DNA of 32,000 nucleotides from Aliivibrio fischeri ES114 (GCF_000011805.1 NC_006841.2); one strand, 5' to 3'. Counted from the stretch's first letter, positions 19,398-26,053 are shown. Numbers and translations are program-made. The notes: generated from the sequence alone by a model not told the origin.

Positions 19398-22300
19398 TCA
19401 GTTTGTTTGTTCTCGGTTCCATATAATACGATCACTTCCTCTATAAATGCCAAAATGAATGATCGCTTTTATTGAATCTTCAAAAGATTGGTTATTATCG
19501 GCATCTTGTTGCAACCACGGTAAGTTTAATAAAGAAAGTGTTGGTACAACTTGTCCTTGGTTGCCATTACCTGGTGCTGTGAATGTCATACTTGTTAAGC
19601 CATTTTCAACATGAGTTTCATCTAAACTTGCTTTTGTTGTCCCTTTTCCTACTGGTAGCGCATTAGGATCGTTACCCACATCAAAACTGAATTCAGGCAG
19701 AGATAAAACGGTACAGCTGTCATTGATTTTGACGAATCGATTTCCGGTATAAGATTCTGTTTGTATTTTAGATTCAAGATCATTCAATTCAGAGCCATAT
19801 GCATCTTCCATAGTGATACGCCCCCACTCTTGTCGTTGAGTATCTGTGGCTGGAAATGCGTAACCCAGACAAGCACCAGAAGCATTGGTTTTATGACAAA
19901 TTTGGTCTTGGTCTCTTAAGTCATCCGCCGCTAATTGCAGCGTTATTGTATCTTCAACGGGTGCTTTAGGGTTGAAAGGTTTGATGTAACGTAAATTCGC
20001 CCCTTGCAGCTGCATTTTAGCTTGTGCTGGTAATTTAATTACGTTCCCCGGTGTCGCAAAACCAGAGCGCTGCCCTAAAACTGAAAGGGTTTCACTATCA
20101 ATGATGGACATATTTGATGGTGAAGCCGTATAGGTTCTTAAATTCCAACCGTTGTTATAACGCCACCATGAACCAATTGTGTAGTTTTGCAGTAAGGTTC
20201 CCGTTTCAGATAACGGATAAAGACTTAGTGTTGGCGATTCTGTAAAGCTGAACGTTTGTCCCATGTAAGTAAATTCATTACAACCCTCTTGAATGCTTGG
20301 TTTATCTCCCAATACATTAAAGTAAGCAGGAGTAAATCGACCAATAGAGCCTGTATTTGCCGCTTTAATTTGATAAGCCGAGCTACCTAAATAACCTTTT
20401 GGTGGGGTAACCGATATGTCAAATACACCCACTTCACTAATACTTTGAGGAACACGGTTGGTACTCCCTTGTGCTATTTGGTGATCGTAGTGGTTGGTCG
20501 ATAAGTTACCTGTATTCCCTCCTAACTGCTGAGAAGGAGCAACTAACGTATGATCTAAAATTAAATTATCTTGAGCGTAGTTTGGTGTCACAGGGTTATC
20601 AGCAAGGTAGGTGTCGTTATCTCCCATCCATGCGTGTGCTCTTACATTTAAATTAAAGGTTTCACCGGCGTGAGCAAAAATAGAGCAGCTTACGTCTTCA
20701 GATGAACAATTGCTGTTAGCACTTGAGTTATTTTTGTCAGTAACATAAGCACTTAAACCAACAGGAATACTGACAAATAAGTCACTTCCTTCAATATTTT
20801 GATAGTAACTTTTTTGATATTTAGCATTAAGTTGCAGTTGGCCGGCATCTGCGTAATTTAAGGTTATTTTTGCTTCGTTATTGGTAAAGTTTAATGCAAA
20901 TGTGGTTGCTGCACTTTCTTGTTTCCCAATGTCTTTCCATGAATTATTTACTAATCCATACAATGTCGGTGAACCAATTAAATTACTTTGCTTTGGTGTA
21001 ATGTAATCAGACCATAACTGAATATTTTTGGTACCAGTAAATGAGTTACCACAACCTTTGATAGTAGCTTCAACAGGTTTATTGGCTAACTTATCAGGAA
21101 CAATAACTGTCAAACCTTCTGATTCGAAGTTAAGGGTACAGTTTTTATCACTTAATGATTGGCCATTAATGCTACATAGTGTGTGACTAAATGGTTTTGT
21201 TGATGGTGATGAACTCACAACATCCAATTTAACGTTACCTTGTGTAGGTTTACCTATTGATAAATTAGCAATCCCGTTTCTAACCGTAATATTATTGCCG
21301 TTTAGCCAATAGCCATCGCCACCTAAATTACTGGTATCTAAGGTAACATCAACATCTTCAGTAAATAGAGTTGAACAAGATTCGTCGGCACAAGCACGTA
21401 ATGTGACATTAGATACATCACAAGTAGACCCTTGTCCTGAATGATCAAATTCAAAGTGATCAATTTGCTCACCAATTGGTTTTGAGTAAAGTGCACACAC
21501 TTTGAAATTATCAATCTCATGGGTGTTATAAAGCTGACCCGTTGAACCAGTTAATGACATGATGAAATTTTCAGGTGGTTCATCTTGATTATATTGTGGT
21601 CTTAATACATCAATTGGCCCAATTACTTTACTAAAGCTAGGTGCGTGCCCAGCATTAACCACACTACGTTCAACCGTTACATTTGCGTTATTTCGGTTGG
21701 TTGAATCAATAGTAATACGGTAACGATGTGTTCTATTGTAGCCATTATTATTGTCAATATCTGGAGATACACGAGTTCCTGCAATGTAGTTATAGCCTGA
21801 ATATCGTGCACCAGAACCACGTAATACAACAGATTGAGCCGTATTATAAGAGTTGTAGTTTTTAGACCCGCCTTCTTTTGAATAGTTACCGTATTCATCT
21901 AGACCGATACCAAGCCAACCACCTGTAAAACCGGGTTTAACGGCCTCTGAGTTATTCTTAAAGCCATAGCCTAATGGACCACCAAAAGCACCAGCTTGTG
22001 GGGTTACTTCTGCATCTGAAAATACAATAGCTAAACCATCAGCGCCGTTGCCGCCATAGGCCATGTAATCAAATTCAACTTCGATTTTATTACCAAGTGC
22101 AGGGTACAAATATTGATAAGAAGAGGCAGTTGATTGTGCTCTTCGGGCCTGTGTTAATTGCAGACGTCCATTTATGACTGTTGGCGTAAAAGAACCGCTG
22201 CTTCGGCTTGTTACCCAACTGGTGGTTAGACTGTCAAAATTGTCTTCATAACAGGTCATTTCGACGTTATCAGGACACGGGTGGCGTTGTTGATAAAGTT

Positions 22301-25539: not shown

Positions 25540-26053
25540 GGATATAGCCCTCTTTTTCGATACAAATTTTAGTTTGTGTTTTGGCGGTAATTAAAATTTC
25601 ACATGATGTGTTTTGGCACTGTTTTATACGTCCCATCGCATCAAAATCAAAGGCAAAAGGTGTGGTAAGTGTTTTGTATTGGTTTCCTATTTGCAATGCG
25701 AAATAGGCGTTATGTTTTTCTAAAATAGCCACGTAGGTGAGGTCTTGGTTTTCAAGATACTCATTATTGCGCTGGGTATTTGGGAATGAGGTTGCGCATT
25801 CTGTTTTTTTATCAAGGCTAACTTGTTGTGCACGATTTTCATTAATTAGCCATCGGTTACAGTAACCGTTTCGGTTCATAGCTCGAGTTTGGGTTAAACG
25901 TAATGAACGCAATAATTCCGTTTCTAATGTTTGTGCAGAAACGCTACTAATTCCTGAGAAATAGCTGCTGGCACTGAGCGAGATAATTGAAATTAAAACA
26001 ATTACTGCAATAAGTTCAATTAATGTAAATCCATCTATTTGATTACGAGTCAT
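25529..26053 (-). CDS. Type IV pilin-like protein, FimT/FimU/GspH-like (MshC-like)
   Basis: 174 aa. The N-terminus MTRNQIDG/FTLIELIAVIVLISIISL is a canonical prepilin cleavage/methylation motif with Glu+5. This is the first gene of the operon. Confidence 0.75.
   Translation of the reverse strand: MTRNQIDGFTLIELIAVIVLISIISLSASSYFSGISSVSAQTLETELLRSLRLTQTRAMNRNGYCNRWLINENRAQQVSLDKKTECATSFPNTQRNNEYLENQDLTYVAILEKHNAYFALQIGNQYKTLTTPFAFDFDAMGRIKQCQNTSCEILITAKTQTKICIEKEGYIHAC

Follow-up and report, generated by a model that had tools for sequence, protein, structure and literature searches.

A stretch of 32,000 nucleotides (nt) from Aliivibrio fischeri ES114 (NC_006841.2), analysed at its full length and called the window here, carries five overlapping genes on the minus strand, at 19398-26053, that resemble the end of the operon for the mannose-sensitive haemagglutinin (MSHA) pilus. 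Vibrio, Shewanella and Aeromonas attach to hosts and surfaces by means of MSHA pili, whose tip composition has only recently come under study. An earlier note, made from the sequence alone, had described the five genes as a set of minor pilins with a giant adhesin and without pilus machinery of its own. We confirmed the five open reading frames (ORFs) in both position and size. From 5' to 3' on their strand, they encode an mshC-like minor pilin of 174 amino acids (aa) (25529-26053), with the prepilin motif G/FTLIELI, in which Glu5 is present; an mshD-like minor pilin of 184 aa (24985-25539), with the motif G/FSLISIV and therefore Ser at +5; an mshO-like minor pilin of 264 aa (24191-24985), with the motif G/FTLLEMI; an mshP-like protein of 144 aa from its ATG (23785-24219), with the N-terminus QRG/SALILTI and without Glu5; and an mshQ-like secreted protein of 1465 aa from a GTG (19398-23795), the proposed tip adhesin and PilY1 analogue. 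We refer to these five genes as the module, and to the proteins by the letters C, D, O, P and Q.

The overlaps noted earlier were also found. They are exactly 11, 1 and 29 nt for C/D, D/O and O/P, while the P/Q overlap is 11 nt with the GTG start of Q and 8 nt with the adjacent ATG at 23792, the choice of the gene call, which gives a protein of 1464 aa. The mshP-like ORF can be extended mechanically to a TTG at 24258; gene callers and homologues take the ATG.

We compared the module with the Vibrio cholerae locus, which reads mshL-M-N-E-G-F-B-A-C-D-O-P-Q and is followed by mreBCD. The V. cholerae genes mshC-mshD-mshO-mshP-mshQ (VC0410-VC0414) are the same five genes in the same order, with the same overlaps of 11, 1 and 29 nt, and encode proteins of 170, 189, 256, 138 and 1467 aa, against 174, 184, 264, 144 and 1465 aa in the module. 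In global alignments, the matched identities to V. cholerae MshC, MshD, MshO, MshP and MshQ were 37, 47, 49, 44 and 38%, while mismatched Msh pairs gave 12-22% (17-21% for the mshC-like protein against the other Msh pilins). The resemblance to the mshC/D-O-P-Q tail of MSHA loci, proposed in the earlier note, is thus a one-to-one correspondence. All five proteins were closest to MSHA components, at 37-53% identity. The databases already label module proteins MshP and MshQ, and the mshP-like protein is 98% identical to one annotated 'MshP [Aliivibrio fischeri MJ11]'. Judged by these alignments, we hold with high confidence that the five proteins are one-to-one homologues of MshC, MshD, MshO, MshP and MshQ. 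By sequence, the module is a second version of the end of the MSHA structural operon, either paralogous or xenologous.

The four small proteins had been proposed to carry prepilin-like N-termini, and domain searches agreed with this. The Pfam N_methyl model scored above its cut-off for the C and O proteins, and just short of it for the D protein (19.5 bits against a cut-off of 21.2). Class III N-termini are present on C and O, both of which retain Glu5; D has the cleavage motif with Ser5, and P has the expected Q-x-G/S-A-L. When family profiles were run against solved pilins, they matched the N-terminal helix, and the best match was MshA (9lab) for C (E 5e-12), for D (E 8e-4) and for O (E 4e-7). 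These profiles did better than single sequences: C, O and Q, each compared singly with the PDB sequences, returned nothing useful. With NCBIfam, only weak sub-threshold matches confined to the N-terminal helix were seen, to GspH, XpsH and ComGD for the mshC-like protein and to GspJ, ComGF and PilV for the mshO-like protein. Going by these weak matches, the mshC-like protein would be of the H type, that is, a GspH/FimU-type adaptor. For the other subunits we follow a 2026 paper that equates MshD, MshO and MshP with PilV, PilW and PilX (GspI, GspJ and GspK) and MshQ with PilC/PilY1 (PMC13533445, Table 1 for D).

The mshP-like protein of the window itself matched no family. Among MshP-family members, however, 8 of 59 matched Pfam PilX_N (best E 3e-5), in line with the PilX_N-like character suggested earlier. 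The family alignment has the invariant residues G15, F23, R54, C78, C98, C104 and C125 (four of them cysteines) and an invariant Gly in Q-x-G/S-A-L, and Glu5 is absent. In the AlphaFold model (predicted local distance difference test, pLDDT, 84.7), a helix at residues 14-73 is followed by a four-stranded antiparallel sheet, so that the predicted topology is pilin-like.

Two other families were considered and rejected. The GspH-GspI-GspJ-GspK proteins of the type II secretion system (T2SS) are also four pilin-like proteins in H-I-J-K order, but the T2SS has no large adhesin partner, and the mshP-like protein, at 144 aa, is much smaller than GspK. The GspH model scored 25.6 bits (cut-off 80) and GspJ 14.9 bits (cut-off 64.85), with no match to GspI or GspK. 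Membership in the Escherichia coli ppdA-ppdB-ygdB-ppdC group was likewise rejected, with PRK10557, PRK10506 and PRK10332 scoring 12-20 bits against cut-offs of 86-158.

The mshQ-like protein can be aligned with V. cholerae MshQ over its full length. Its homologues in Aliivibrio are 67-89% identical, followed by canonical Vibrio MshQ proteins at about 40%, and the best match outside Aliivibrio is MshQ of V. cholerae. It has a Sec signal peptide, with cleavage predicted by eye after residue 26 (...SAFA/FP). The MshQ-like assignment in the earlier note was supported by Pfam, which found DUF6701 (E 5e-127) and Laminin_G_3 (E 7e-34), together with weak DUF7305 and weak Pentaxin matches. The LamG plus DUF6701 architecture and the C-terminal motif are common to module Q and V. 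cholerae MshQ.

An AlphaFold2 model covering residues 1-800 (overall pLDDT 71) comprises a low-confidence segment (38-102), a beta-solenoid (about 110-265, pLDDT about 90), a LamG domain (about 335-505) and a beta-sandwich (about 515-770). By Pfam the LamG or concanavalin-A-like jelly roll spans residues 341-497 (22305-22775, minus strand; AlphaFold2 pLDDT about 88). The second beta-sandwich (residues about 515-770; 21486-22253, minus strand) is predicted to be all-beta and L-type-lectin-like, with pLDDT 70-90. It has no Pfam match in the window protein; in a V. cholerae MshQ allele, the corresponding homologous segment matches Lectin_L-type_dom weakly, below the cut-off. Foldseek placed clostridial neurotoxin receptor-binding domains at the top for this model (E about 5e-11, with low template modelling scores), which we take to reflect a common lectin-like jelly roll.

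The C-terminal part is a constant module formed by DUF6701, at residues 871-1462 (19410-21185, minus strand), and closes with the terminal motif FGIYRGSDRIIWNRE (19410-19454, minus strand). At E<=1e-3, the DUF6701 region matched 1687 clusters at 50% identity. The domain stood nearly always at the extreme C-terminus, in proteins of 660-2632 aa whose heads were none, DUF7305, a bactofilin-like beta-helix, LamG or an L-type lectin. Across 22 diverse members the terminal motif, FG(I/L)YRGSDR(I/V)IW.RE, has G1449, G1453, I1458 and E1462 invariant, and the last 15 residues of the mshQ-like protein are the stretch best conserved with V. cholerae. This fits a docking role proposed for the terminus: in a published model MshQ docks on MshP, and its terminus is predicted to add a beta-strand to MshP (PMC13533445). 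Together with a V. cholerae screen in which insertions in mshC, mshD, mshO, mshP and mshQ were among the suppressors alongside msh pilus genes (PMC4624765, Table 1), this PilY1-equivalent model means that the role of MshQ-type proteins is no longer essentially uncharacterised, as the earlier note had it.

The head of the mshQ-like protein behaves differently from the rest. We observed that residues about 51-250 (23046-23645, minus strand), which take in the low-confidence segment and most of the beta-solenoid, are 38-60% identical between two A. fischeri strains (47% over the cassette), while the remainder is 98-100% identical. The synonymous divergence (dS) between the two strains is 1.87 in the head and 0.18-0.24 elsewhere. 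Compared with Aliivibrio sp. EL58, the head in the window is 92% identical and the rest of the protein 75-83%. On these comparisons, the head is an allelic cassette exchanged across species by recombination. Cassette exchange of this kind is typical of exposed binding domains.

The canonical V. cholerae MshQ also occurs in two length classes, of about 1467 aa and about 1211-1290 aa (e.g. 1277 aa), the shorter of which has a weak L-type lectin match in Pfam. The head of the canonical adhesin is therefore polymorphic as well.

We then considered the position of the module. A six-frame motif scan of the 32 kb yielded only the class III N-termini of C, D and O, so that the window holds no major pilin, and Pfam searches of the remaining window ORFs found no ATPase, platform protein, secretin or prepilin peptidase. 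The absence of pilus machinery from the window, as claimed earlier, is thus upheld. For the wider picture, GTDB was scanned, with one genome per species, using a 10-sequence MshQ alignment; from the best 80 hits, 79 loci were retrieved with 10-kb flanks, and the V. cholerae Msh proteins were mapped onto them. Ten of these loci were from Aliivibrio (A. fischeri, A. finisterrensis with two, A. sifiae, A. logei, EL58, S4MY1, S3MY1, 1S175 and one metagenome-assembled genome) and 69 were not.

None of the 10 Aliivibrio loci had MshE, MshG, MshM, MshN, MshF, MshB or MshA within 10 kb of the module. Contiguity with a complete msh or pil operon, which the earlier note had considered, was accordingly seen in none of them. 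All ten showed C-D-O-P-Q followed by an AstE-like gene and a POT transporter gene. In contrast, 64 of the 69 loci outside Aliivibrio had the canonical order with mshE and mshG; of the other five, four were short contigs with mshB/A or mreB context and one could not be assigned. The complete loci belonged to Vibrio, Shewanella, Aeromonas, Rheinheimera, Arsukibacterium, Alkalimonas, Pseudomonas, Pseudothauera and Marinobacter. A. wodanis also has the module, and conservation of the genes extends to 11 or more Aliivibrio species or lineages. Among the loci sampled, the unlinked arrangement is specific to Aliivibrio and genus-wide. As there is no machinery in the window or within 10 kb, we treat the module as an unlinked paralogous set and not as a canonical msh locus.

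The module thus differs from the V. cholerae tail in several ways. It has neither the preceding mshB/mshA or mshI-F assembly operon nor the following mreB. It lies on a chromosome-II-sized replicon, between variable cargo and the AstE-like gene. It also has a promoter region of its own, the Ser5 of the MshD-like protein, and a recombining head of the DUF7305-type beta-solenoid kind. The right flank is constant in the Aliivibrio loci, while the left flank differs: it consists of dmsABC in the window and in one further locus (L001), a 5'-nucleotidase and a tricorn-like protease in another A. fischeri strain, LysR and DUF1254/1214 genes in A. sifiae, and a second module in 1S175. An origin as a foreign island was considered; the G+C content of the module (0.38-0.42) is the same as that of its flanks, and only the left flank varies between genomes. 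Carriage on a plasmid was rejected, the sole match being a weak one to a 4.9-Mb Aeromonas record in a plasmid collection.

A machine encoded elsewhere, as the earlier note presumed, is available in ES114: the msh locus VF_0355-VF_0371 has its own mshCDOPQ, with an MshQ gene of 3108 nt (PMC7811199). The MSHA cluster was reported in 100% of the surveyed Aliivibrio strains, with 'diverged homologs' of mshE, mshP and/or mshQ in specific strains (PMC12327903). We found no paper describing the unlinked Aliivibrio module. Alternative sets of minor pilins and adhesin are already established in Myxococcus xanthus.

In no fewer than 10 Aliivibrio species, all five ORFs are intact and their overlaps are kept. 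Between the window and another A. fischeri strain, the Nei-Gojobori ratios of nonsynonymous to synonymous substitution (dN/dS) were 0.14 for C, 0.37 for D, 0.05 for O, 0.10 for P and 0.24 for Q; against A. sifiae they were 0.11-0.20. Over these comparisons the mshC-like gene ranged from 0.11 to 0.14. The genes are thus under purifying selection.

When we aligned the 300 nt upstream of gene C from six regions, two conserved elements were seen. One is a promoter-like site, TTGACA-16 nt-TATTTT (26237-26264, minus strand), with 10 of 12 consensus matches, about 185 nt upstream of the mshC-like gene. Its TTGACAG (-35) was invariant in all six regions, including those with differing neighbours and that of the second tandem module of 1S175, and by consensus match and conservation it is a candidate promoter. 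The other is a leader box, TTTTATCCGTA, with the partial inverted repeat CCGTA...TACGG (26077-26108, minus strand), about 25-55 nt before the start codon. It was likewise invariant in 6/6 regions, and may be an operator or leader element. The A-rich context of the start codon is also kept, and we observed no Shine-Dalgarno sequence before the ATG of the mshC-like gene.

Aliivibrio sp. 1S175, 1S165 and 1S128 have two complete C-D-O-P-Q modules in tandem (1S175 locus L012, 2144-14371), separated by a terminator-like hairpin. The C, D, O and P proteins of the two are 63-69% identical. The Q protein of the first module has 967 aa, with a short head and no LamG, and only DUF6701 is common to it and the second Q. 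The earlier note had suggested an exchangeable tip that changes adhesion specificity; a recombining head, and tandem modules with different heads, would fit this idea.

Taken together, the module is on balance probably an accessory, independently transcribed tip and priming set that would use the MSHA machine in trans, providing an alternative adhesin to cap MshA pili. We infer the use of the MSHA machine, the location at the tip and the adhesin function. The module would be transcribed from its own conserved promoter, and the four prepilins, of the H, I, J and K types, would be cleaved by a shared prepilin peptidase and form a priming complex in the inner membrane. The MshQ-like protein would dock by its conserved extreme C-terminus on the MshP-like subunit, and the complex would be loaded onto the MSHA machine (MshE, MshG, MshL and others) encoded elsewhere. 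Polymerisation of MshA beneath the complex would then give a pilus whose tip bears the lectin-rich MshQ-like protein in place of the canonical MshQ. The constant DUF6701 docking half, the recombining head and the duplication of whole modules could in this manner generate a repertoire of tip specificities. The predicted design of the MshQ-like protein, with a swapped head, lectin-type jelly rolls in the N-terminal half and a constant C-terminal domain, resembles that of an adhesin and speaks for this function.

The closest parallel is found in the type IVa pili of M. xanthus, where several sets, each of four minor pilins and a large tip adhesin, serve one machine (PMC7541494, PMC8833165, PMC9109919). 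Those sets are differentially expressed, and in each adhesin a conserved domain for docking is joined to an N-terminal part that varies. The two adhesin families have no relation to each other, however, with a C-terminal beta-propeller in PilY1 and DUF6701 in the module, and the Myxococcus pili are twitching pili while the module would belong to the MSHA class. By analogy, the Aliivibrio module is best read as the equivalent, for MSHA pili, of these multiple minor-pilin/PilY1 sets.

The FimU-PilV-PilW-PilX-PilY1 set of Pseudomonas aeruginosa and PilH-I-J-K with PilC of Neisseria also have the same order, with an H-type adaptor, an I-J-K core and a large Sec-exported adhesin. As in the module, the operon stands apart from the pilus motor genes, the K-type subunit is without Glu5, and the C-terminus of the adhesin is predicted to complete the sheet of the K subunit (PMC13533445). 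Unlike in these sets, the I-type subunit of the module also lacks Glu5, and its minor pilins fall under the cut-off of the PilV model. Membership of the mshQ-like protein in the PilY1/PilC family was rejected, with no PilY1/Neisseria_PilC domain in Pfam and no sequence match to solved PilY1/PilC structures. It may, by analogy, work like PilY1 without belonging to that family.

Several observations weigh against such an accessory set. Glu5 of pilins is important for assembly. The MshD-like protein has Ser5 in all 9 Aliivibrio modules with a detectable motif, while Glu5 was present in 59/59 canonical MshD proteins, and with this loss the compatibility with MshA filaments could be changed or lowered. 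Foldseek of the mshP-like model against the PDB gave no significant pilin match. The co-occurrence of the module with a canonical msh locus rests on the literature: a canonical A. fischeri locus was neither in the best 80 genome matches nor in the top 120 of three protein searches, and the cluster representatives of matching length, sought as the canonical A. fischeri set, came either from different species or from second copies in Aliivibrio. The adhesin gene of one A. wodanis assembly is broken into two ORFs, of 314 aa with DUF7305 and of 892 aa with DUF6701, either by a frameshift (pseudogene) or by an assembly error, and the module would therefore be dispensable in at least some strains. 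Finally, the locus tags that we presume for the module in ES114, VF_A0074-VF_A0080 (guessed from the hnoX/hahK tags), were not mentioned in the main texts and the one supplement searched.

We also weighed whether the module serves another type IV filament machine, either the chitin-regulated (competence) pilus of PilABCD/PilMNOPQ or the Eps T2SS. Nothing in the window physically ties the module to the msh machinery, and the loss of Glu5 in the MshD-like protein is itself a divergence from the canonical MSHA minor pilins. The DNA-uptake type IVa pilus and the T2SS of V. cholerae are without a PilC/PilY1-type adhesin (PMC13533445), a role that an unlinked set could fill. However, all five proteins are nearest to MSHA components, and of all solved pilins MshA gives the best match to the C, D and O profiles. 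The scores with Gsp, PilV and ComG models were far under the cut-offs and came from the N-terminal helix only, and none of the retrieved DUF6701 loci outside Aliivibrio was tied to non-msh machinery. We consider service to another machine unlikely.

A different arrangement would be a short pseudopilus-like stub, formed by the minor pilins without a long MshA fibre, with the MshQ-like protein pushed through a secretin and displayed on the cell surface; the module would then be a device dedicated to adhesin display and not a pilus tip. The module does hold a full H-I-J-K set with its cargo and no major pilin, its D and P subunits are both without Glu5, and its duplication as a complete unit suggests a self-sufficient structural unit. 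A stub would still require an ATPase, a platform protein and a secretin, though, and none is nearby. The canonical MshQ, moreover, acts in a long MSHA pilus system (PMC4624765). The MshC-like adaptor is also kept under purifying selection. In related systems, the H-type adaptor joins the tip complex to the major pilin. A stub of this kind therefore appears improbable to us.

That the module is what is left, silent or in decay, of a second msh locus after the loss of its machinery genes is very doubtful: it would suit the unlinked position, the split adhesin gene of the A. wodanis assembly and the lack of expression data in our text searches on the presumed locus tags, but it is disfavoured because of the low dN/dS (0.05-0.37 within and 0.11-0.20 between species), the conserved promoter region and the duplication of whole modules in some species, which, with the five intact ORFs and conserved overlaps, argue against decay.

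If the module does provide an alternative tip, the 'one machine, several tips' strategy of Myxococcus would extend to the MSHA class. The canonical, unlinked and tandem sets would then form a natural experiment on the docking of MshQ to MshP, with a constant domain under swapped heads. If it is silent, the module is merely a paralogous gene cluster. We see its main value as a testable natural system for the specificity of tip complexes.

Aliivibrio are the light-organ bacteria of squid and fish, and as an alternative tip the module would be a candidate for strain-specific adhesion in the squid-Vibrio fischeri symbiosis. A broader proposal, which we put forward tentatively and rate as rather unlikely, is that the unlinked modules of Aliivibrio are a horizontally shuffled MSHA specificity system, in which each module, and each head within it, would provide the same pilus with a different lectin tip, and the change of Glu5 to Ser in the MshD-like subunit would mark a tip complex whose apex is rearranged to suit this adhesin. 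If this were true, head exchange and tandem duplication would tune the host surface that is bound (the squid or fish light organ, mucus or chitin).

With regard to the boundaries of the module, the earlier note had placed it between the dmsABC terminator on one side and a peptidase and a POT transporter on the other. The first boundary was found as described: a terminator-like hairpin (26369-26397, minus strand), with a 12-pair stem followed by a T run, closes the dmsABC unit and stands directly 3' of the dmsC stop at 26425. On the other side, one correction applies. The peptidase gene encodes an AstE/M14-like protein of 306 aa without a signal peptide (18455-19375, minus strand) and begins 22 nt after the stop of the mshQ-like gene. 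Because of this short gap, in which there is an AAGGA ribosome-binding site and no terminator-like site, it is probably co-transcribed with the module by read-through, as a sixth gene. In all Aliivibrio loci it is the gene that immediately follows the module, and the next gene beyond it encodes the DtpA-like POT transporter. The AstE/M14-like protein is better conserved than the module (90% identity to A. sifiae, dN/dS 0.03) and has a weak match to an N-acetyl-ornithine deacetylase model. It appears to be a resident neighbour and not a pilus component.

On the other side of the hairpin, dmsABC, a dmsD-like chaperone gene and a ferredoxin gene (26425-31812) are strain-variable cargo, present in the window and in L001. 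In another A. fischeri strain, in A. sifiae and in 1S175, this cargo is replaced by other genes. The other ORFs of the window include an MFS transporter and a mannitol/phosphotransferase system, in addition to the genes described below.

A haem-NO-binding (H-NOX) protein and a hybrid histidine kinase are encoded at 14364-16649 on the plus strand; in every Aliivibrio locus, they stand two genes away from the module. These neighbours appear to correspond to the V. fischeri hnoX-hahK pair on chromosome II. In V. cholerae, nitric oxide is reported to trigger the retraction of MSHA pili (bioRxiv 10.1101/2021.04.20.440694).

Genes at 359-5114 on the minus strand stand in a row and may form a YfiBNR-like cyclic di-GMP module; they encode a GGDEF diguanylate cyclase that contains CHASE8 and PAS domains, a protein resembling YfiR/HmsC and an outer-membrane protein with a TonB plug. 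Two further ORFs, at 12796-13569 (plus strand, 257 aa) and 13619-14080 (minus strand, 153 aa), had no Pfam or NCBIfam match. The 257-aa ORF is 89% identical between A. fischeri strains, compared with 98-100% for its neighbours.

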